Assembly (NCBI GenBank): GCA_030652805.1
Contig: JAUSPT010000024.1
Coordinates: 3,841 to 67,840 of the forward strand
Length of the DNA: 64,000 nt
Reading direction: 5' to 3'
DNA from: a bacterium
GTDB taxonomy: Bacteria; JAHJDO01
Shown piece after piece: positions 10,038 to 21,015 of this stretch; the stretch's first letter is position 1, and every line of letters begins with the position of its first letter. The notes beneath the pieces are model-generated. The model was not told the DNA's origin. It was given only the letters and a program-made list of their open reading frames with translations, and made no database searches. The translations under genes were made by a program, and so were the position numbers.

Positions 10038-11222
10038 CTAATCCTTTCTTAGAGTGTCTTTTATTATTTTATCCAGATTGTCAACATGGAGCTTCCATGT
10101 GTAATTATTTTCCACAAATTCTCTTGCTTTTTTTCCCATGCGGGAAGCATTAAGAGGATTCTTAGCAAGATTAATGATTGCCTCTGCTATTTTAGAGGGG
10201 TCTTCAGCAGGTGTTATAAAACCTGTTTCCCCGTTAATAACGATTTCAGGAAGCGGATCATAAGAAACAGTAATAACAGGAAGTCCTGATGCCATGTATT
10301 CAAATATCTTGAGAGGAGACCAGAAGAATCCGAAATCTTTTAATGGCTTATAATATGCTGCATTGTAAGGCGCAATGCCTACATCGGATACCGCCATAAA
10401 GTACGGCATCATTTCATATTTTTGTGTGCCGGTAAAAACTGCATACTGGCTCAAATGCATATCTCTGATTTTAGCTTTTACTTCATCCATGCACTCTCCT
10501 CCTCCAACAAAGAGAAACCGCACATTCTTAGCTTTGCTGACCACAGCTTTAACAAGTTCTGGAAGGTCAAGTGCACCATGCCACTTTCTGAATGTGCCTG
10601 CAAACACTACTGTAAACTTGTTTTCCAGATTGTACATTTTTCTGATTTTATTTGCTTTGTCTGTGTTTCGCAGTTCAGGTGCAAACATGTCTGTGTTTGC
10701 CGCCCATCTAACCTGCTCTATTTTTAGGCGGGCATGCTTAGGGACAACTGTAAGTGAAGTAGCTATAACCTTTTTTGCCTGTCTGAATTGAATATCTCTC
10801 CAGGTTCTAAGAAGATTAATAGTTGTTTTACATGTAATGTTATATCTCCATATAAGCTCTTCAGTATGAGGGCTGTTTACCTCAAGTATAAGCGGAATTT
10901 TCTTAAGCTTTGAATATATAGTTCCCACTCCGCCAAAGGTAACATATCTTTCAATGATTATATCAAACCTTCTCATCAGTAGTTCCGGAAGCAGTTTAAG
11001 ACCTGCAATAGAGAGAATTTTATTTAAATATTGCATGTTAGTGCGAAGGAGTTTCACCCCTTTTAAGTATTCAGAATGCGCTGATGTTCCTTGCTTTTGT
11101 GAGATTAAAGTTACTTCATATCCGAGTCTGGATAGATTTGAAGCAACCTCCCAAACATGTACTGATCCGCCGTTATTCCCGGGGACAGTCTCTCCTGTTA
11201 TGTATAACACCTTAATGCTCAT
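10038..11222 (-). CDS. Glycosyltransferase family 4 (GT4)
   Basis: GT4-like N-terminal domain and the C-terminal E..G..P.E.MA.G.PVI motif (FEYMASGLPVIT). 394 aa. Confidence 0.8.
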   Translation of the reverse strand: MSIKVLYITGETVPGNNGGSVHVWEVASNLSRLGYEVTLISQKQGTSAHSEYLKGVKLLRTNMQYLNKILSIAGLKLLPELLMRRFDIIIERYVTFGGVGTIYSKLKKIPLILEVNSPHTEELIWRYNITCKTTINLLRTWRDIQFRQAKKVIATSLTVVPKHARLKIEQVRWAANTDMFAPELRNTDKANKIRKMYNLENKFTVVFAGTFRKWHGALDLPELVKAVVSKAKNVRFLFVGGGECMDEVKAKIRDMHLSQYAVFTGTQKYEMMPYFMAVSDVGIAPYNAAYYKPLKDFGFFWSPLKIFEYMASGLPVITVSYDPLPEIVINGETGFITPAEDPSKIAEAIINLAKNPLNASRMGKKAREFVENNYTWKLHVDNLDKIIKDTLRKD

Positions 11223-11911
11223 ATTAACCTGTGTTCCTTAAAACTGAAATAGCCTTCAAGTCCTATAATAATGTGATCCAGCACATTAACATCTACAGTA
11301 CCGAGCGCTTTAATCAATACCTGTGTTATGTTCTTATCATCCTCTGAGGCTGTAAGACTTCCTCCTGGATGATTATGTGCAAGAATAACAGATACAGCTT
11401 TGTTCCCTAAAGCATGTTCCACTACCTTGCGAGGGTAAACCACTGCTTTATTTACAGTACCAACGTGTATTGTCTCTACTTTAACAGGTCTGTTGGCTGT
11501 ATTAAGGAAAATAACCTTAAAAATTTCATCCTTAGCTCCTCTTAATGAGGCTTGTAAGTAATCATAGACTGCTTTTGGTGAAGATATTATATTCTCCTGT
11601 TCCAAAAGATTCTCTAACAAGTACAAGGGAACAGCCTCTCTAAATAGATTAATAAGAGTAGCTGCATTTGTGCCCATCCCATTTACTGTACTTAGCGCTT
11701 CTATTTCTGCATCAAAGACCCCTCTAACGCTTTTAAACTTTTTAAGCAATGCTTTAGCGATTGGTTTTGTATCCTTACGAGATATTGCATAGGTAAGTAT
11801 CAATTCAAGAATTTCATAATCATGCCAATTGCCAAATCCGCTCTTTAGGTACTTTTCTCTAATTCTCTGTCTGTGTCCCAGATAGTCAGGCTTTGCTATT
11901 TTATTTTTCAC
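11219..11911 (-). CDS. radC: RadC-like JAB/MPN domain protein (UPF0758)
   Basis: JAMM motif HNHPGGSLTASEDD, plus an N-terminal helix-hairpin-helix-like region. 230 aa. Confidence 0.85.
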   Translation of the reverse strand: MKNKIAKPDYLGHRQRIREKYLKSGFGNWHDYEILELILTYAISRKDTKPIAKALLKKFKSVRGVFDAEIEALSTVNGMGTNAATLINLFREAVPLYLLENLLEQENIISSPKAVYDYLQASLRGAKDEIFKVIFLNTANRPVKVETIHVGTVNKAVVYPRKVVEHALGNKAVSVILAHNHPGGSLTASEDDKNITQVLIKALGTVDVNVLDHIIIGLEGYFSFKEHRLI

Positions 11912-11927: not shown

Positions 11928-12986
11928 TCATCTTTGTTTTTCCTTTTCTATTTTCAGTTCTTTCCTCATAGACTTTTTTAGGGTTTTCGCGTCAGGAAGT
12001 TTTTCTTTAAACTCTTTTGGCAATCTTTTGGTTAGGTAATATTCAGCCACTCCTACGGGTTTTTTAACACTTCGTAAAGCGTACTCAACAACAATATTGT
12101 CTTTATCCGCACAAAGAATAATGCCTATCGGCGGATTCTCATCTTTTAATCTTACCTGTTCGTCCAACAGATGCAGATAAAAATCCATCTTACCAGTATA
12201 TTCCGGCTCAAATTTACCGGTTTTAAGTTCAATCGCCACGAGACATTTTAGTTCGCGGTTAAAGAAGAGAAGATCGATAAAATACTCGTTATGCCCCAGC
12301 CTCAGCCTGTATTGATTGCCGATGAACGAAAACCCCTTGCCGAGCTCAAGCATAAACCGTTTCAGTCTATCCACCAGCCTTTTTTCTAATTCTCGTTCTA
12401 AAACAGGTTTTGCAATACCAAGGAAGTCTAAATTATAGACGCTCTTTATTGACTCATCAGCCTGTTCAGCAAGATGTTTTGGAAGGGCTTTAGGAAAATT
12501 GTGGGTTTTTCGCCTAAGGCTTAAAGCGTAAGCGTCCGCTTTTATTTGATTAAGAAGAACATTTCGCGACCAGCTCATCTCGACCGATGCTTTTAAATAA
12601 TACGCTCTTTCTTTTTTGTTTTTGATCTTAGAAAAAATAAGAATGTTGTGCCCCCATGGCAATTCTCCAACAGCCTGTTGGAGAATTGGATCATCTTTGT
12701 ACTCAAGATAAAATTGACGCATATACCAGAGGTTTTGAGCTGAAAACCCAAATGTGGTTTTAAAATCTTTCTGCAAATCATTTGCAAGTTTTTCAACGAC
12801 TGCGTTCCCCCATTTATATTTTTCCTGTCTTTCTACAATCGTTTTGCCGATATCCCAATATAGATTAATAAGCTCCTTATTAATTTTTCGGACGACCTTA
12901 ATCCTGGACGAAAGGATACGTGATTTAATTTCCTTAAAAAAATTCCTATATTCTTTACTTAACGCATTTCCCATGTTTATCTCCAT
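11928..12986 (-). CDS. PDDEXK nuclease, DUF1016/YhcG family
   Basis: C-terminal FIDLLFFNRELKCLVAIELKTGKFEPEYTGKMDFYL matches the YhcG-type PD-(D/E)xK core. N-terminal DUF1016-like helical region. 352 aa. Confidence 0.7.
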   Translation of the reverse strand: MEINMGNALSKEYRNFFKEIKSRILSSRIKVVRKINKELINLYWDIGKTIVERQEKYKWGNAVVEKLANDLQKDFKTTFGFSAQNLWYMRQFYLEYKDDPILQQAVGELPWGHNILIFSKIKNKKERAYYLKASVEMSWSRNVLLNQIKADAYALSLRRKTHNFPKALPKHLAEQADESIKSVYNLDFLGIAKPVLERELEKRLVDRLKRFMLELGKGFSFIGNQYRLRLGHNEYFIDLLFFNRELKCLVAIELKTGKFEPEYTGKMDFYLHLLDEQVRLKDENPPIGIILCADKDNIVVEYALRSVKKPVGVAEYYLTKRLPKEFKEKLPDAKTLKKSMRKELKIEKEKQR

Positions 12987-13137: not shown

Positions 13138-13623
13138 TTATCTGAATCCTATCCTCGGATTATCAATTTCATTCGCTTGGTTTTTCCAATATTCCAGTGT
13201 CTCATCCGGTGTAGAAAATACTCGTATTTTGTTTTTGTTAGAATTTTTAGACATAGGAAAACAGAGAAGATAACTCTTTACTTCTTCTCCTTCTTCAATT
13301 TTACTAATTTCGTTGTGGTAAATACCAATCTTAATAATGTGAGAAAATATTTGTAAAAGGAATTTGTCTTGGTCTATTTGTTTCTCATTTATATTCCATC
13401 TTACAAGCACTTTGTTAGCAATTCCCATATCAACTACAGACCAATCTTCATTGTCTTTAAGGATTTTAAAAAATTCATAATAGGAGGACTCCCTCTTATT
13501 GAGACGAAAACCTAGTCCATTATCCTTAAATGAGTATTCCGTTTTCCCTATACAAAACTCATTATCCTTTATATTTTCCATTTTCATGATTCTCCTTTTT
13601 GAAATTAGTGAAATTAGAGACAC
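13138..13623 (-). CDS. Hypothetical protein (no recognisable domain); likely start at the internal Met (MENIKDNEF)
   Basis: ORF only. It lies between the PDDEXK gene and the R-M genes and is co-directional with them. Confidence 0.35.
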   Translation of the reverse strand: MSLISLISKRRIMKMENIKDNEFCIGKTEYSFKDNGLGFRLNKRESSYYEFFKILKDNEDWSVVDMGIANKVLVRWNINEKQIDQDKFLLQIFSHIIKIGIYHNEISKIEEGEEVKSYLLCFPMSKNSNKNKIRVFSTPDETLEYWKNQANEIDNPRIGFR

Positions 13624-13646: not shown

Positions 13647-16061
13647 CTATTCTCCCCATACTTCCTTGATTTTATCTTTTATATTTTGTCCAAAGATCGT
13701 GATTAATTCTTTATTAGCTTCAACTGCTTTCCATTCCTTCCTGATGCGAGAAACCACTTCTTCTTGAATTTCAAGAGAAGGCAAAAAAATCTTTAGCTCT
13801 TGCACATCCTTTTGATTAATACTCGGATATGCTCCTTTTCCCATCCTATCAATCATTTGTTTTTGAAGATATTCTCCGAAAAGCTGATAATATACAAATT
13901 GGGGAACGACTTTGCTGGATGCAGTCAATACTGCAAAACCCGTCGAAGCAATTGTGCTTTTAGGGAGTTCTGACAAATAGCAGAAAGCTTTTAGGTTTGG
14001 CCTTACTGTTGAAAGAAGAACGTCTCCATTTCTAACAACTCGTCTTGCTCTACTTGGTGCATCTATCCCTTTTATGCGATTGTTAAATGATACGATACCT
14101 GTTCCATTTTCAACAGATGTAATATCTATATAAACAAATTTATTTTCTCCGTATTTCTTTTTGGGATCAACAGTATCTGCATTTACTGCGAGCACATTCC
14201 CCAACTCCACCATCTCCCAATCAGGATCAATTTTGAAAGCAGGCTTATAATTTTCAACTACCTGTTTTGCGCCGTCAATAATTTTTTGATAATTGTCTAA
14301 TTCGGCAACAATCTGTTCCTGAACTTCAAGCGGCGGGAGAGGAATTTTAATTCTTTTTAATTCTTTAAAATGCCGGCTATAACCTAAATTCTTTATTTTT
14401 AAATTTTCTAAAATAAAATAGAAAAATCTCGGGATATATTCATCAGTGGGTTTTAATATTTTTACTCCGTCAGCACCTAAGACAAAATCAAAGTCAATAT
14501 ATTTAAAACATTTTGTATGATCTCCAAAAATTACAAGAGGCTCACTAACTCTAAAGACATCTTCTTCTCCATTCCAATATCCTGCAATAAATTTCTCGGA
14601 TTGATCAACGATTGGATATTTTCCCTCATTCAGAAATTTTTCCTTTTTTATTTTTGTTGAATACTCGATCTTCTCAATAGCATCTTCAACTTCCACAAAA
14701 TCCCACTTCCCGCTATAAATAACTGCTTCACGATACCTATCTCCGCTCAAGTTATAATCTCCGCTTTCTGCGATTTTTGTTTTTCCCACTGCATAAGCGA
14801 TTTTCTCATTGGGCTGAAAATTTTCAGCCCCTACAGTTTTTTGCCATCTCTGCAAAATTTCTAATGCCATCGGCAAATCATTTTCTTTTATTTCTCTTCT
14901 CTGCGCGCCTAATCCAAAGCCGTCATTGTTTATTTTTACAAACAGAATTTTATCTGTCTTTTTTGCCAGATTTTTATCCAACAACAATATTGATGTCTTA
15001 ACTCCAGCATAAGGATTGAAAACCCCTGGAGGTAGAGACACAACAGCATAAAGTGAATATTCAATGAGCATCTTGCGAAGTTTTTTATAAGCTGTCTCTG
15101 TCTTAAAAATTATACCTTCAGGGACAATAATCCCTGCGCGGCCATTAGGATTTAAATGCTCTGCAATATAATCAACAAAAAGCACCTCTGAGCGTTTTGC
15201 CTGCACGCTAAACCTCTTGTGCGGTTTGATTCCACCTTTCGGGCTCATGAACGGAGGATTTGCTAAGATAACGTCAAAGACCTCTTGCCATTTTTCTTCT
15301 GAGCTTAATGTGTCATATTCGTATATTTTGGGATTTTGGAATTTATGCAGATACATATTGGCTAGAGATAATCTCACCATATCAGGAGAAATATCATAGC
15401 CGGAGAAGTTTTCAATCAGCCTCTTTTTTTCATCAGGAGTTAAATGTACCCTGTCGTCTTTTTTGTTTTTTTCTAAAATATGTTTATATGAAGAAATTAA
15501 GAATCCGGCCGTACCACAGGCAGGGTCTAAAATAGTTTCATTCTTTTTAGGATCAACTACTTTTACAATAAAATCTATAATATGCCTGGGTGTTCTAAAC
15601 TGACCGGCATCACCCTGCGAACCCATAATAGAAAGCAGATATTCAAACGCATCGCCTAATTTTTCGCTATGGTCATATTCAAACTCGCCAATAACTTTAA
15701 GAAAACTTTTTAAAGTTTCAGGATCACGATACGGCAAATAGGCATTCTTAAAAATATCCCGAAATAATTGCGGGATATTTGGATTATGGTTCATCCGTTG
15801 AATTGCTTCTCCATACAACCCGACAAGTTCATGACCGCTTACACGAGGGTCAAATATTTTACTCCATGCATATTTTGCGTATTCCCCTGTGAAAAACTTG
15901 GATCTACCTCCCAATTCTTCAGCCTGCTTATCCATATCATCCATAAACTTGTAAATCAAGGCTATGGTAATCTGTTCAACCTGTGATTTCGGGTCAGGCA
16001 GCTTACCAACAAGAATATCCCTTGCTGTATCAATTCGTCTTTTTGTTCCATTAGTCAACAT
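13647..16061 (-). CDS. hsdMS: Type I restriction-modification methyltransferase with fused specificity subunit (HsdM-HsdS fusion)
   Basis: N-terminal N6-adenine methyltransferase (GTAGFL motif I, ILANPPF motif IV). C-terminal ~330 aa carries two HsdS conserved-region motifs, LPPLEVQEQIVAELD and LPSLEIQEEVVSRI, separated by target-recognition-domain-like segments. 804 aa. Confidence 0.8.
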   Translation of the reverse strand: MLTNGTKRRIDTARDILVGKLPDPKSQVEQITIALIYKFMDDMDKQAEELGGRSKFFTGEYAKYAWSKIFDPRVSGHELVGLYGEAIQRMNHNPNIPQLFRDIFKNAYLPYRDPETLKSFLKVIGEFEYDHSEKLGDAFEYLLSIMGSQGDAGQFRTPRHIIDFIVKVVDPKKNETILDPACGTAGFLISSYKHILEKNKKDDRVHLTPDEKKRLIENFSGYDISPDMVRLSLANMYLHKFQNPKIYEYDTLSSEEKWQEVFDVILANPPFMSPKGGIKPHKRFSVQAKRSEVLFVDYIAEHLNPNGRAGIIVPEGIIFKTETAYKKLRKMLIEYSLYAVVSLPPGVFNPYAGVKTSILLLDKNLAKKTDKILFVKINNDGFGLGAQRREIKENDLPMALEILQRWQKTVGAENFQPNEKIAYAVGKTKIAESGDYNLSGDRYREAVIYSGKWDFVEVEDAIEKIEYSTKIKKEKFLNEGKYPIVDQSEKFIAGYWNGEEDVFRVSEPLVIFGDHTKCFKYIDFDFVLGADGVKILKPTDEYIPRFFYFILENLKIKNLGYSRHFKELKRIKIPLPPLEVQEQIVAELDNYQKIIDGAKQVVENYKPAFKIDPDWEMVELGNVLAVNADTVDPKKKYGENKFVYIDITSVENGTGIVSFNNRIKGIDAPSRARRVVRNGDVLLSTVRPNLKAFCYLSELPKSTIASTGFAVLTASSKVVPQFVYYQLFGEYLQKQMIDRMGKGAYPSINQKDVQELKIFLPSLEIQEEVVSRIRKEWKAVEANKELITIFGQNIKDKIKEVWGE

Positions 16062-16075
16062 ATCTCAATTCTCTT

Positions 16076-18628
16076 TTAAGCAACAAAAGCATTTATCGGG
16101 ACATAATCTTTTATATATTCAACAACAGGGTCTCTCCATCCGTCCAGTTCTTTTAAGTCACTCATATCAAATCTTGAATTAGTTGCAAGTCTGCTGTATT
16201 CCTGCGAGTTCAAAATTTCCCGTAATTCGGCATCTATAATATATGCTTTCATAAACTGGCGTATGATATGGATAAACTTGTTTTCAGGATGATAAATAGA
16301 AATAAATTTCCCGATTTCTTCTTCAAGTAGCTCATCTTTGCTCTTGAATTTTTTAATTCGTCCGAATATTTTTTCTAAGATTTCACGCAAACCTAATCTT
16401 CGGTCAAGTTTAACGGACTTGCGTAACTTATCAATGTTGAAATATTTTTCCGGTTTGTCAAAAACTTCTTTTTTTATGTATGCTTCAGCTTCTTCGTATT
16501 TGCCTTCGTCAATCTTGCCTTTTATATATTCATCAGCTTTAACCGTTTCCTCAAATGTTTCAAATATCTTTCTGTCAATTTTCATGCCGCCAAAGCCAAT
16601 AATGGTTTCTGCAATCTCCTTTATGGGATCAGGACGGACGCTTTCGTATTCTTTCAATGGCGGAGGTGGCGGCGGAAATGGACCAGTGCCCCCTCCTGTT
16701 CCATGCGGCAATTCAATTACTTCATCATAATTAAATTTTTCTTCAAAATATTCGCAATTGGCAAAGAAATCAAAAAGTTTAAATCGTTCTTTTTTAGCTG
16801 CATATTTCTCTATCTCACCTAACTCATCTTTTTCGCTAAAGTTGAAATCAAATTTCCGAGTCCCTCTACCTTTCATTTGAATAAAATCTGTCGGCGAAAA
16901 AATAGGGCGCATTAAACATAGATTGAGAATATCTTCACAATCGTATCCTGTGGTCATCATCCCTACGGTAACACATACGCGGGTTCTACTGGAATTATAG
17001 CCGTCCTTAAAGGCTGTGTGTCCATTAAGAATGTTATTTGAAAAATTAATTGCCATCTGTTGTGCGCCGTCAATACGCGATGTTACTTGTACCGCAAAAT
17101 CAGATTTGTATTTATCGGGATATATTTTGTGCGCCAGCGCATTAAGTATCTGTGTGATTTTCGAGGCGTGATTCTGGCTTACGCAGAAGATAATACTTTT
17201 ACCTATCTCTCCTGTCAGCGGATCTTTTAACGCATTTTCTAAGAATGTCTTGCATAATGTCCTGTTAGTCTTTTCAGAATAGAACTTTCTTTCAAAGTCT
17301 TTTTGGAAATATGTCTTTTCCTCTTCTTCTCCTTCTTCATTTTTCAGCAATACAGAATAACCCATTTCTGAAAGCAATTCCGTTGTTATATCCGTCCTAG
17401 CATCAACAACAATAGGGTTTACCAGATATCCTTCCTTTACTCCATTCAGAAGAGTATATCTGAATGTTGGATTACTCGCTTCGCATCCAAAAGTTTTATA
17501 AGTATCCAATAATTGACGCCTTTCTAATTTACGAGGATCTCTTTCTGCCAATTTCTTTTCATCAATCTTTTTCAAGTAGTCCTTTGGCGTTGCAGTAAGT
17601 CCCAATTTATATCCGGTAAAATACTCAAAGACCGCACGGCTGTTGCCCCCGATTGATCTGTGTGCCTCATCCGATATAACCAAATCAAAATCTGTCGGAG
17701 AAAACAAATCCTTATATTTATTGTCAAAAAGAAACGACTGAACTGTTGATATAACAATTTCCGCTTTTTTCCAATCGTCCTTATTTTCTTTATAAATTAC
17801 CGATTTATAATCACTTTTCATATACTTAACAAAGTTCTTCCACGCTTGATCCTCTAACTCTAATCTATCAACAAGAAAAAGCACCCTTTTTGCGTTTCCT
17901 GTTCTTAAGAATAATTTAATGACGCCTGCTGCAACAAGAGTCTTTCCTGTGCCTGTTGCCATTTCAAATAAGAATCTGCTTTTTCTTTCCTTTACTGCTT
18001 CCTGCAAAGATTTAATGGCATTTATCTGATAATCCCTCAAGAATTTAAGACTGTCATCGTTAATAAAATCTTCTCTTTTTGTCTCATTAATCCAATTGGG
18101 GTCGCTTTTATAATCCGGCTTTTGAGAAATGACGATATAATCTGACTCAATGTATTCACGAACTAAATTGTTCGGATTAGGCTTGAAAGATTTTTTATAA
18201 GTTAAAGACTCACACGTTGGGAATGCGGTTATGATATGAGGATTACCTGTTTCAATGTCCCAAAAATAATGCAGATTACCATTTGATAGAATTACAAAAC
18301 GAACATTAAGATTTTTCGCATATGTACGAGCCTGTTCTTTCCCGCCTAAAGGATCTTTATCTTCCCTTTTTGCCTCTAAAACAACAAAAGGAAATCCTTT
18401 ATCATCTAAAAGAATATAATCTGCAAACCCGTTTTTTGTTTTCTCAAAATCTTCGCCAAGGTCAGTAAGCGCTTGTTCTGTGATTTTAACATTTGTCTCC
18501 AAGCAAATGTTGGCGGATCCGGTATCTGTATCAAAAAAGCGCCAGCCTGCGTCTTCAAGATATTTGTTTATTCGTATGCGTGCTTTGGCTTCTTTCTGCA
18601 TAGTTTTTATTCTTCTTTCAAATTCCAA
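16076..18628 (-). CDS. hsdR: Type I restriction enzyme R subunit (compact, EcoEI-like HsdR): N-terminal PD-(D/E)xK nuclease plus SF2 helicase
   Basis: HSDR_N-type nuclease block (ADYILLDDKGFPFVVLEAKRED). Helicase motif I EMATGTGKT and motif II VISDEAHR. Pro/Gly linker GTGGGTGPFPPPPPP. 850 aa. Confidence 0.8.
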   Translation of the reverse strand: MEFERRIKTMQKEAKARIRINKYLEDAGWRFFDTDTGSANICLETNVKITEQALTDLGEDFEKTKNGFADYILLDDKGFPFVVLEAKREDKDPLGGKEQARTYAKNLNVRFVILSNGNLHYFWDIETGNPHIITAFPTCESLTYKKSFKPNPNNLVREYIESDYIVISQKPDYKSDPNWINETKREDFINDDSLKFLRDYQINAIKSLQEAVKERKSRFLFEMATGTGKTLVAAGVIKLFLRTGNAKRVLFLVDRLELEDQAWKNFVKYMKSDYKSVIYKENKDDWKKAEIVISTVQSFLFDNKYKDLFSPTDFDLVISDEAHRSIGGNSRAVFEYFTGYKLGLTATPKDYLKKIDEKKLAERDPRKLERRQLLDTYKTFGCEASNPTFRYTLLNGVKEGYLVNPIVVDARTDITTELLSEMGYSVLLKNEEGEEEEKTYFQKDFERKFYSEKTNRTLCKTFLENALKDPLTGEIGKSIIFCVSQNHASKITQILNALAHKIYPDKYKSDFAVQVTSRIDGAQQMAINFSNNILNGHTAFKDGYNSSRTRVCVTVGMMTTGYDCEDILNLCLMRPIFSPTDFIQMKGRGTRKFDFNFSEKDELGEIEKYAAKKERFKLFDFFANCEYFEEKFNYDEVIELPHGTGGGTGPFPPPPPPLKEYESVRPDPIKEIAETIIGFGGMKIDRKIFETFEETVKADEYIKGKIDEGKYEEAEAYIKKEVFDKPEKYFNIDKLRKSVKLDRRLGLREILEKIFGRIKKFKSKDELLEEEIGKFISIYHPENKFIHIIRQFMKAYIIDAELREILNSQEYSRLATNSRFDMSDLKELDGWRDPVVEYIKDYVPINAFVA

Positions 18629-18656
18629 TTATACCACACCATACATAAAGCATAAA

Positions 18657-18676
18657 GGGCACAGCACGCTGTGCCC
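18657..18676 (-). terminator. Rho-independent terminator for the minus-strand oxidoreductase gene (GGGCACAG-CACG-CTGTGCCC, followed on the minus strand by TTTATGCTTTATG)
   Basis: Perfect 8-bp stem with a 4-nt loop, read in the sequence, immediately downstream of the stop at 18731 on the minus strand. Confidence 0.6.
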
Positions 18677-18730
18677 CTACGAATTTTGATTTCACCGAAC
18701 AATTATTGTTTGTTATTCTCCGACTATTAT

Positions 18731-19888
18731 TCATTTGTTAAAGGATTTACTGAGATCCCCGTCTATTTTCTTTGCTGTTTTTTTGGTAAATTTTGATTTT
18801 CTGATAAGCTCATTGAGCATTTTCTCGTATGCTCTGCTGTCGAGAGGCATTTCAACAGGTTTAGCAGTCATAGAAGAATAGAGTATAGCATTGCCAAGTT
18901 CCACTGAATGTATGCCTTCTTCAGCTGGAGCAATTAGTTTTTCTCCTTTAAGAATAGCATTCACAAAATTCTGGAGTATCTCAGCATGCTGCCCACCATT
19001 GCCGTTTACAGGAATGGTAATATTCCATACATCAGGTGTTGCAAAAATCTGTTTTGAGGTCTTGATAAATTTATTTGCTGGGACTTCATTACGAGTAAAG
19101 GTTAATACATCGCCCTCAAGAACCACTTTCCCGCATTCTCCGGCAATCTCCAGACGGTTTGTTCCAGGTGCTTCACCGGTAGACGTAATAAAAACACCCG
19201 TAGCTCCGTTTTTGTATTCCATGTATGCAGTAACTTCATCTTCTACCTCAATATTATGCCTTTTCCCAATACCGCAAAAACCGTGCACTTTTTTTGGCAT
19301 TCCGCACAACCACTGAAACAAGTCCAGCTGATGCGGGCACTGGTTCAGCAGCACTCCTCCTCCTTCACCCTTCCACGTTGCGCGCCAGGAGCCGGAGGCA
19401 AAGTATGCATTAGTGCGAAACCAGTTTGTGATAATCCATGTAACTCTGATAAGCGCCCCAAGCTCTCCAGAATCAATAAGCTGTTTAATTTTTTTGTAAT
19501 GAGGGTCTGTACGCATATTGAACATGGCTGCAAAAACCAGTTTGTTATTCTTTTTATGCGCAGCAATAAGACGCTCGCAGTCAGCCTTGTGCACTGAAAT
19601 TGGTTTCTCAACCAGAACATGGTGACCAGCATTAAGCGCGTCAATGCCAGTCGTAGTATGGAAGTAGTGCGGAGTAACGATCATCACTGCGTCAGACACT
19701 TTTCCCTTAAGAAGTTCTTTATGATCGTTAAATACCCTGCAGTTATATTTTTGCCCGGCAGCTTTAGCTCGTTCCAGATCAACATCACAGACACATGTTA
19801 ATTCGGCATTTTCTGTTTTTTTAATATTATTCATATGCAGACTTGCCATACATCCAGCACCAATCACTCCTATTCTTACGTTTTTCAT
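18731..19888 (-). CDS. Gfo/Idh/MocA family oxidoreductase
   Basis: N-terminal VRIGVIGAGCMASLH Rossmann fold, EKP motif (VLVEKPIS), and a C-terminal GFO_IDH_MocA_C-like region. 385 aa. Confidence 0.8.
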   Translation of the reverse strand: MKNVRIGVIGAGCMASLHMNNIKKTENAELTCVCDVDLERAKAAGQKYNCRVFNDHKELLKGKVSDAVMIVTPHYFHTTTGIDALNAGHHVLVEKPISVHKADCERLIAAHKKNNKLVFAAMFNMRTDPHYKKIKQLIDSGELGALIRVTWIITNWFRTNAYFASGSWRATWKGEGGGVLLNQCPHQLDLFQWLCGMPKKVHGFCGIGKRHNIEVEDEVTAYMEYKNGATGVFITSTGEAPGTNRLEIAGECGKVVLEGDVLTFTRNEVPANKFIKTSKQIFATPDVWNITIPVNGNGGQHAEILQNFVNAILKGEKLIAPAEEGIHSVELGNAILYSSMTAKPVEMPLDSRAYEKMLNELIRKSKFTKKTAKKIDGDLSKSFNK

Positions 19889-21015
19889 ACATCCCCCTTC
19901 GTTATTTCTTGTAGTTTATTGTAAACCGCTTTGCATACTTCCTCAACAGTTATTGCATCCATACAATAGTGTTTATCCTGCTTGCAAACAGGTTTCTTGC
20001 AGCCCAGACAAAAGGCGTCTTCTTTCTGTATGACTATATGCTCCTCTCCGTATGGCCGCCATATTCTGGGATCACCCGGTCCAAATAAGGCAATAACAGG
20101 TGTGTTAACTGCAGAAGCTATATGAGTTGCGCAGGTGTCAACACTTACAAGCAGATCTGCCCTTCTCAGAACCTCTGCATATTGACCAAGGTTCATTCCG
20201 CAATTTGAGGCTATCGGCTTAGCGTGCATATTGTTCTCTATTTCTTTTATTAAATCAGCATCATCAGGTCCTCCTGATATGCAGACTTTTGCTTTAAGTT
20301 TTTCTATTATAAAATCCCCAACTTGCGCAAATCTATCTGCTTGCCACTGATAAGATGTATTGCTTCCGGGATGTATGCATACAAGAGTATCTGTTTGCGC
20401 TACATTGTGCTCTTTTAGAAAACTTTCACACCTTTTTTGACTTTCATGTGATTCTCTAATATAGGGGCGCTGCTCTTTAAGAGGGAATCCTGCCTTTTCT
20501 ATGAGTTTTAACCAGCTATCTACTTCATGAGATACTTTTATTGAGTCCGAGTATTCCCACATAGGTTTATTCCAGTAAAGAGGCGCTTTTACCTTGTCTG
20601 TCAATAAGAATCCTCTGCAGCGATAGTTATAGCCTATACGCCTCTTTGAATTAGCCCAAAATGCTATAAGATTGCTGGTAAGCCTTGTATCCAGAACTAT
20701 TGCAAGGTCATAGATATGAGCAGGTAAAGTCTTAGAAAACTTCCATATTAGAAATGGATTTCTCCCATTTTTTTTACAGTCAAAATAAACAATATTATCA
20801 GCAAGCTCCTGATCTTCAACAATTGATTTGAGATTAGGGGAAACAGCCAAAGTTATATGCGCCTCAGGTAAATTTTCCCTAACTGCTCTTATTGCAGGGA
20901 ATGTTACAACTGTATCCCCTATGCGCAAGAGGTCCACTATTAAAACATTCTTAAACTCTGAGATATCCATAATTAATTTATAATAGCAAATATTCCACAA
21001 GATATCCATTGTCAT
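19885..21015 (-). CDS. Glycosyltransferase family 9 (ADP-heptose:LPS heptosyltransferase-like)
   Basis: GT9 architecture: VLIVDLLRIGDTV near the N-terminus and a C-terminal GPGDP...VSVDTCATHIA..NTPVIALFGP block. 376 aa. Confidence 0.75.
   Translation of the reverse strand: MTMDILWNICYYKLIMDISEFKNVLIVDLLRIGDTVVTFPAIRAVRENLPEAHITLAVSPNLKSIVEDQELADNIVYFDCKKNGRNPFLIWKFSKTLPAHIYDLAIVLDTRLTSNLIAFWANSKRRIGYNYRCRGFLLTDKVKAPLYWNKPMWEYSDSIKVSHEVDSWLKLIEKAGFPLKEQRPYIRESHESQKRCESFLKEHNVAQTDTLVCIHPGSNTSYQWQADRFAQVGDFIIEKLKAKVCISGGPDDADLIKEIENNMHAKPIASNCGMNLGQYAEVLRRADLLVSVDTCATHIASAVNTPVIALFGPGDPRIWRPYGEEHIVIQKEDAFCLGCKKPVCKQDKHYCMDAITVEEVCKAVYNKLQEITKGDV

Follow-up and report, generated by a model that had tools for sequence, protein, structure and literature searches.

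Type I restriction-modification (R-M) systems are built from three separate subunits, R, M and S. The locus described here raises the question of what becomes of such a system when M and S are a single polypeptide, with one methylase domain, two target recognition domains (TRDs) and no free M gene. It lies in a stretch of 64,000 nucleotides (nt) from a bacterium (assembly GCA_030652805.1, contig JAUSPT010000024.1, positions 3,841 to 67,840), which we call the window. Coordinates are window positions unless another locus is named, and every window feature given below is on the minus strand. A first-pass annotation had proposed a Type I-like R-M system with M and S in one polypeptide beside a short HsdR, and domain scans and homolog comparison bear out this core claim. 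We conclude that the two genes very probably form a functional two-gene Type I-like R-M operon of the “Type IMS” architecture. Roberts et al. 2012 (PMC3510504) proposed this name for systems that keep R separate and have M fused to an S of one or two TRDs. The window system has just this composition, and in the literature searched the term occurs only in the 2012 paper.

The fused hsdM-hsdS gene (13647..16061) encodes 804 amino acids (aa). Pfam places N6_Mtase at aa 133–445 (187 bits) and two Methylase_S stretches in the C-terminal half (85 bits), while PADLOC splits the chain into MTase_I (aa 2–448, 337 bits) and Specificity_I (aa 450–784, 175 bits). The M part opens with a helical region (aa 1–130, 15672..16061) that is 83% conserved and matches HsdM_N with 20.7 bits (E = 7e-4), below the cutoff of 24.5. 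It is followed by the catalytic domain of a gamma-class N6-adenine methyltransferase (aa 131–395, 14877..15671), in which the S-adenosylmethionine motif DPACGTAGF (aa 179–187) and the catalytic NPPF (aa 268–271) are invariant across 51 sequences. In a PDB sequence search the best matches are HsdM chains (5YBB_A, E = 1e-41). Because the TIGR00497 hsdM equivalog reaches 73 bits and misses its cutoff of 243, the M part is a divergent branch and not a textbook HsdM. A connector (aa 396–448, 14718..14876) then leads into the S part through a short helix (aa 396–409), a hypervariable loop at about aa 401–420 (15% identity) and a conserved strand/helix segment.

The S part consists of TRD1 (aa 449–570, 14352..14717), a central conserved region (CR1; aa 571–612, 14226..14351) with LPPLEVQEQIV at aa 575–585, TRD2 (aa 613–752, 13806..14225) and a C-terminal conserved region (CR2; aa 753–804, 13647..13805) with LPSLEIQEEVV at aa 760–770, ending at the stop codon. 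Both of these motifs and NPPF are thus found in the protein in which the first-pass annotation had placed them. Failure of the two TRD/CR units to match HsdS models had been set beforehand as grounds for rejecting that annotation, and both units match. TRD2 matches TRD1 of T. tengcongensis HsdS (3OKG/5YBB_D) with 88 bits and TRD1 shows weak similarity to the N-terminal TRD of EcoR124 HsdS, similarities that are too slight to name recognition bases. Within the window protein the resemblance between the two TRDs is confined to the conserved C-terminal portions (85 aa, 25% identity) and, as they are otherwise unlike each other, the target would be bipartite and asymmetric. The AlphaFold model of the M-S protein has a predicted local distance difference test (pLDDT) score of 82, is confident within domains and has a predicted template modelling (pTM) score of 0.51. 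It shows CR1 as a 27-residue helix (aa 578–604) and CR2 as a 40-residue helix (aa 763–802), with no long HsdM tail between M and TRD1. Its best structural match in the PDB is 7EEW, followed by HsdM and HsdS chains.

Canonical hsdM and hsdS genes often overlap by 1–4 nt, so one indel could fuse them, and a frameshifted hsdM/hsdS junction was the other result that would have spoken against the first-pass annotation. We therefore compared the protein with 116 full-length M-S relatives (788–865 aa, 54–71% identical) and one identical protein, the latter on a 101-kb contig of a metagenome-assembled genome (MAG). Methyltransferase and S domains stand in one chain, with the junction in frame, in all 116 homologs, which come from independent assemblies including complete genomes and plasmids. 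When one genome per species was scanned, an M-S relative turned up in at least 562 species-representative genomes, and in the best 80 of these loci the M-S gene is always full length and in frame at the junction. The hosts of these 80 include Planctomycetota, Bacteroidota, Ignavibacteria, Acidobacteria, Proteobacteria (for example, Bradyrhizobium and Thiobacillus denitrificans), Patescibacteria, Chloroflexota, Nitrospirota, cyanobacteria and one archaeon. Neither window gene has a homopolymer longer than 7 nt or another simple repeat, and the connector and CR1 are conserved as protein. Given 116 independent in-frame homologs and the lack of long homopolymers, an assembly or sequencing artefact or a frameshift pseudogene joining hsdM and hsdS is scarcely conceivable. 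We reject it and, on this comparative evidence, take the fusion to be genuine.

The first-pass annotation had also called M-S fusions uncommon. This holds relative to canonical Type I systems but not in absolute terms, given that the family is large and spread over many phyla. Among the best 150 cluster representatives (50% identity), 105 carry both conserved regions and 30 are one-TRD forms. Sixteen of the 150 (P0273, P0282, P0287, P0343, P0365 and P0376 among them) are 900–1050 aa long, with about 250 aa instead of about 120 between the end of M and CR1, a spacer that could be a far larger TRD1 or an extra domain.

The fused gene is preceded by an hsdR-like gene. The two long open reading frames (ORFs), at 13647..16061 (804 aa, from ATG) and 16076..18628 (850 aa, from TTG), have exactly the coordinates of the first-pass annotation and are 14 nt apart, but the length of 850 aa for R needs correction. 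The TTG at 18628 overlaps an extended -10 box, TGgTATAAT (18636–18628), and every R homolog (835–845 aa) aligns from residue 10–11 of the TTG ORF. Hence, the true start is the ATG at 18601, which gives a restriction subunit of 841 aa (16076..18601). The extended -10 sequence (18628..18636), just 5′ of hsdR, is a putative promoter element that was read by eye; the -35/-10 consensus scan did not pick it up. Farther upstream, a terminator-like hairpin, GGGGCACAGC-GTG-CTGTGCCC with a T-rich tail (18655..18678; read by eye and by terminator scan), closes the upstream oxidoreductase gene and marks the upstream edge of the R-MS unit. The spacer of 14 nt between the R stop and the M-S start (16062..16075, AAGAGAATTGAGAT) holds a purine-rich ribosome-binding site, and the commonest R-to-M-S spacing among homolog loci is the same 10–14 nt. 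We read hsdR and the fused hsdM-hsdS as a two-gene operon.

Domain scans of R give HSDR_N, HSDR_N_2, ResIII (136 bits) and Helicase_C. In R and M-S alike, the main hits cover whole domains and are too strong to be due to chance. The PD-(D/E)xK nuclease domain, covered by HSDR_N and HSDR_N_2 (aa 1–170, 18092..18601), has D61/D66, E76 and K78 invariant in 50 homologs. The superfamily 2 (SF2) translocase motor, covered by ResIII (aa 186–585, 16847..18046), shows 81% mean conservation and carries GTGKT (217–221), DEAH (311–314), TATP (336–339) and GRGTR (578–582). The best PDB matches of R are 3H1T (E = 4e-35, to the motor), a fragment of the 817-aa IB-like HsdR of V. vulnificus (PMC2777439), and then EcoR124I HsdR. 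The Pro/Gly hinge claimed for R is present as the run GTGGGTGPFPPPPPPL in a linker at aa 629–650 (16652..16717). The identity of this segment is 41%, yet it averages 34% proline plus glycine across the family and, because its richness in these residues is kept while its sequence varies, it behaves as expected of a flexible linker.

The rest of R is an all-helical C-terminal domain (aa 651–841, 16079..16651) that is family-specific, 69% conserved and modelled as a helical bundle with a pLDDT of about 80. The C-terminal 258 aa of R have no Pfam match at E ≤ 10, EcoEI_R_C included, and no PDB sequence match. The model of the whole of R is weak (pLDDT 64), and the fold is not assignable beyond a helical bundle. 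By analogy with other HsdR proteins (PMC2777439), the domain presumably docks on the methylase. R had been described as being of the short EcoEI-like type. This stands for the nuclease and motor, which resemble the EcoAI family (NF046051, the EcoAI/FtnUII equivalog, 242 bits against a cutoff of 550 and with only profile positions 11–515 of 768 matched), but not for the C-terminal domain, and the closest solved relative is the IB-like V. vulnificus HsdR 3H1T.

To define the unit that is conserved, we scanned 83 distinct related loci with M-part and S-part profiles and with the window R; 69 of them have enough upstream sequence to be judged. In 63 of these 69 loci M-S is immediately preceded, on the same strand, by a full-length R of the same family, and the gap between the two is at most 60 nt in 34 of the 63. 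R is split or partial in five loci and missing in one. None of the 83 loci has a second M gene, and short S (CR2) fragments occur downstream of M-S in five only. Likewise, the 64-kb window contains no M, S or R gene besides the R and M-S pair, so that a separate hsdM or hsdS filling the place of a missing subunit is found neither here nor in the related loci. A gene lies between R and M-S in 22 of the 63 loci (L001, L002, L005, L024, L027 and L036 among them), and these inserts, among them Fic and KilA-N by tool label, fall into 14 unrelated clusters. This rules out a conserved accessory gene at that position, where the window itself has none. The inserts are cargo, not a conserved subunit, and the junction behaves as a cargo hotspot. 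Given the upstream R in 63 of 69 loci, the lack of a second M in all 83 and the unrelated inserts, the conserved unit is exactly R plus M-S. In one Ignavibacteria MAG (L011) a full-length M-S has no R within 8 kb upstream, and in L075 R is reduced to a fragment of 168 aa; both are possible orphan methylases derived from the family. In L021, L043 and L079 R is split by a frameshift or stop.

Across the 116 homologs, mean identity to the window protein is about 83% in M and 79% in CR1 but about 35% in TRD1 and about 35% in TRD2, and the two TRDs are swapped independently of each other. The relatives P0002–P0006 share TRD1 with the window protein (approximately 83%) but not TRD2 (approximately 18%; 19% in P0002), and the reverse is seen in P0007–P0010 (TRD1 approximately 20%, TRD2 67–71%). 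Such independent shuffling, as in ordinary HsdS subunits, argues that both TRDs determine specificity.

The domain content, together with the engineered precedents discussed below, suggests how the system would work. The two unlike TRDs, spaced by a coiled coil of CR1 and CR2, would read an asymmetric bipartite target, and the M domain or domains would protect host DNA by N6-methyladenine (m6A), methylating one adenine in each half-site. At unmethylated sites, R would dock on M, pull in DNA using ATP and cut far from the site. The first-pass annotation had held that the fusion fixes the M:S stoichiometry. In fact it brings no simplification, because the fusion supplies one M per two TRDs, with no free M gene, as opposed to the canonical two M per S. 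As there is no free M here or beside any relative, the second M, which would serve the TRD2 half-site, must either be donated by another M-S chain, with the S part of that chain left idle, or be supplied as a clipped M fragment. For a family so widespread, we favour the second M-S chain.

Experiments on engineered fusions bear on this choice. By removing the frameshift that separates hsdM from hsdS in EcoKI, Roberts et al. 2012 obtained a fusion that was active with HsdR, but in vitro it needed added free M, and they regarded a second chain donating its M as possible but less likely for EcoKI (PMC3510504). Bower et al. 2018 found that the S. aureus CC398-1 fusion (MSfus) methylated both half-sites (approximately 76% of sites) and restricted without added M, and its size-exclusion profile hinted at a dimer (PMC6158711). 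It also co-purified with a 73-kDa fragment comprising all of M and half of TRD1. Given the free M needed by EcoKI and the clipped M that came with the S. aureus fusion, a whole second chain can be put forward only as a candidate M donor.

The same system could instead obtain its second M as a proteolytic or translational by-product. M-S chains would be clipped in the hypervariable connector or in TRD1, and a freed M would join an intact M-S in a core resembling M2S1. Besides the 73-kDa fragment that came with the S. aureus fusion, which needed no added M, a western blot suggested some free M in vivo for EcoKI (PMC3510504), and the loop at aa 401–420 of the window protein, just before the S part, is both poorly conserved and modelled with lower confidence. 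However, the loop may be a plain linker, the M/S junction showed neither a conserved cleavage signal nor a conserved slippery sequence, and a reliance on accidental proteolysis is unlikely in a family conserved across many phyla and archaea. We consider clipping a possibility, if a minor one. A half-enzyme would dispense with the second M altogether: an M-S monomer would place its single M over TRD1, methylate one strand of the asymmetric bipartite site and recruit a single R, and after replication protection would depend, as it does for Type III and Type ISP enzymes, on the requirement for two sites in inverse orientation. Each chain has one M and none of the 83 loci has a free M gene, one-TRD relatives keep one M per TRD, and Type ISP enzymes show that half-enzyme logic is workable. 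Yet the engineered two-TRD fusion methylated both half-sites (PMC6158711), and there is no direct support for the half-enzyme; the diversification of TRD2 does not discriminate, because TRD2 would still be needed for binding. This model appears quite improbable. More broadly, it is unlikely that the assembly is obligately non-canonical, be it with a second M provided in trans by a full M-S chain, whose two-TRD module is free for another copy of the target, and with a Type I translocating nuclease coupled to two-site synapsis as in Type IIB enzymes, or as a true half-enzyme with one M and one R. If true, either assembly would answer the problem of one methylase for two TRDs in AloI/CjeI-type enzymes and in the engineered Type IMS fusions.

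Membership in another class of system was also weighed. The window genes give weak matches to MADS MAD2 (105 bits) and mad5, to the BREX PglX methyltransferase (25 bits) and, over the S part, to a Type IIG model, which could point to a part of a MADS or BREX system or to a Type IIG/IIB enzyme rather than to a Type I-like one. The matches are, however, far below the curated cutoffs (720 for MAD2 NF047738, 500 for PglX) and are explained by shared methyltransferase and TRD folds. No other MADS or BREX genes are nearby, where the neighbours are R, an orphan ORF, YhcG and RadC. The HsdR-like gene is the only conserved partner, and a nuclease on the translocase and not on the methyltransferase chain excludes Type IIG/IIB. 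We reject these identities as highly improbable.

Several points tell against a functional Type I-like operon of the Type IMS kind. The source is a MAG, both proteins miss their curated equivalog cutoffs (73 against 243 bits for hsdM, 242 against 550 for the EcoAI-type R), the arrangement of the M-S domains is uncertain at a pTM of 0.51, and the R model is poor, with its pLDDT of 64. To these are added the free M that the EcoKI fusion needed in vitro and the clipped M fragment that accompanied the S. aureus fusion.

The R-M block is flanked by cell-envelope sugar genes, with a GT4 glycosyltransferase on one side (10038–11222) and a GFO/IDH/MocA oxidoreductase and a GT9 heptosyltransferase on the other (18731–21015). 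No flanking direct repeats, nearby tRNA, integrase or GC shift were found around the block, and an insertion boundary could not be set. A small orphan ORF (13138–13587) starts 60 nt downstream of M-S if read from its first ATG (about 149 aa) or 23 nt downstream if read from GTG (161 aa). Pfam, NCBIfam and PADLOC give no match for it and none of 87 related loci has a counterpart; it may not be a real gene. Adjoining the block is a YhcG/DUF1016 PDDEXK nuclease (11928–12986), which PADLOC assigns to the candidate defence family PDC-S02 (465 bits). In two other loci (L012, 3928–4863; L011, 7316–7948) a YhcG homolog immediately precedes R or M-S, a placement that suggests loose defence-island linkage. 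A RadC-family JAB protein (11219–11911) is separated from M-S by two other genes, and its stop overlaps the start of the next glycosyltransferase gene. In the two loci whose R proteins are most closely related to the window R, those of a Planctomycetia MAG and of Ca. Zapsychrus exili (L006, 10448–11125; L008, 5320–5997), RadC directly follows M-S and is about 49% identical to the window RadC; R, M-S and RadC may travel as a unit.

To the source genome, the system adds little beyond a further intact R-M barrier, for which a bipartite m6A motif is expected. It is a fairly ordinary member of a large, widespread and under-annotated lineage, and its architecture is already known, having been named in 2012, engineered and solved in a one-TRD form. 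The interest lies in the R plus M-S family, which is large, extends across many phyla and is also found on plasmids. The NCBI pipeline labels its genes only as “DEAD/DEAH box helicase family protein” and “N-6 DNA methylase” and, with such generic labels, automated surveys that expect three genes may miss the family. It is a natural counterpart of a fusion that was earlier studied only as a laboratory construct, and provides many natural cases in which to test how a chain with a single methylase domain and two recognition domains methylates both half-sites. That question was raised in 2012–2014, and no settlement of it was found in the literature searched.

Compared with known systems, the window pair shares the general features of Type I, with a nuclease and SF2 translocase in R, an HsdM-type gamma methyltransferase and a specificity module of two TRDs and two conserved regions, but a single ORF holds M and S, in the window as in all relatives. 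Type IB systems (EcoAI/EcoEI) come close, having an R of about 800 aa with a PD-(D/E)xK nuclease and SF2 motor, a gamma-class m6A methyltransferase and an S with two TRDs and two conserved regions. They differ in that M and S are separate genes and, given that the window R lacks EcoEI_R_C and stays below the cutoff of the EcoAI/FtnUII equivalog, it does not belong to Type IB. The Type IIB/IIG enzymes AloI, CjeI and TstI likewise combine a single methylase module with two TRDs in one chain, a 1:2 ratio that Loenen et al. 2014 called “a mystery” for AloI/CjeI-type enzymes. These enzymes carry their nuclease on the methylase chain, lack an ATP-driven translocase and cut at fixed distances to either side of the site, whereas the window nuclease sits on the helicase protein. 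Type ISP enzymes (LlaGI, LlaBIII) resemble the window system as fused Type I modules with a translocase-coupled nuclease, but they hold R within the single polypeptide and use a single TRD to read a continuous asymmetric target; in the window R is separated from a two-TRD M-S by a stop codon and the 14-nt spacer.

The engineered EcoKI MSFusion and S. aureus CC398-1 MSfus have, like the window system, HsdM in frame with a two-TRD HsdS and a separate HsdR, and they restrict and modify with the parental specificity (PMC3510504; PMC6158711). They are laboratory constructs from canonical IA and Sau1 systems that keep the long C-terminal tail of HsdM and derive from operons with a free M, whereas the window system represents a divergent lineage that occurs in nature, has an R family of its own and joins M to S by a short connector. 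No characterised natural system of a two-TRD M-S with R was found in the literature searched, nor was a functional study of the plasmid modules described next. The mobilizable plasmid pPZ02 of Paracoccus zhejiangensis carries an R of the same family (848 aa) directly upstream of a two-TRD M-S (858 aa) that is 44% identical to the window protein over its full length. IncF conjugative plasmids of E. coli (for example, NZ_CP116482.1) carry a same-family R (849 aa) with a one-TRD M-S (677 aa), 48% identical over aa 1–585. In NZ_CP116482.1 (L089, 3406–10954) R and M-S are followed by a TrlF-family AAA-like ATPase, all between finO and repA. Of 5,426 complete E. coli genomes, 78 have this R plus M-S module at 99% identity or more, and in each of them it is plasmid-borne. 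The nearest solved precedent is V. vulnificus YJ016, with the same natural two-gene layout of a short IB-like R (HsdR_Vv, 817 aa, PDB 3H1T) and an M fused to specificity (7EEW). The 7EEW protein is a “minimal intact MTase”, M-S(1/2), of one TRD and one conserved region that dimerises to recreate M2S1 on a symmetric target (PMC12429846). The window protein, which is only distantly similar to 7EEW in sequence (95 bits; 15% identity in structural alignment), falls outside this one-TRD, single-CR type and joins two unlike TRDs and two conserved regions in one chain.

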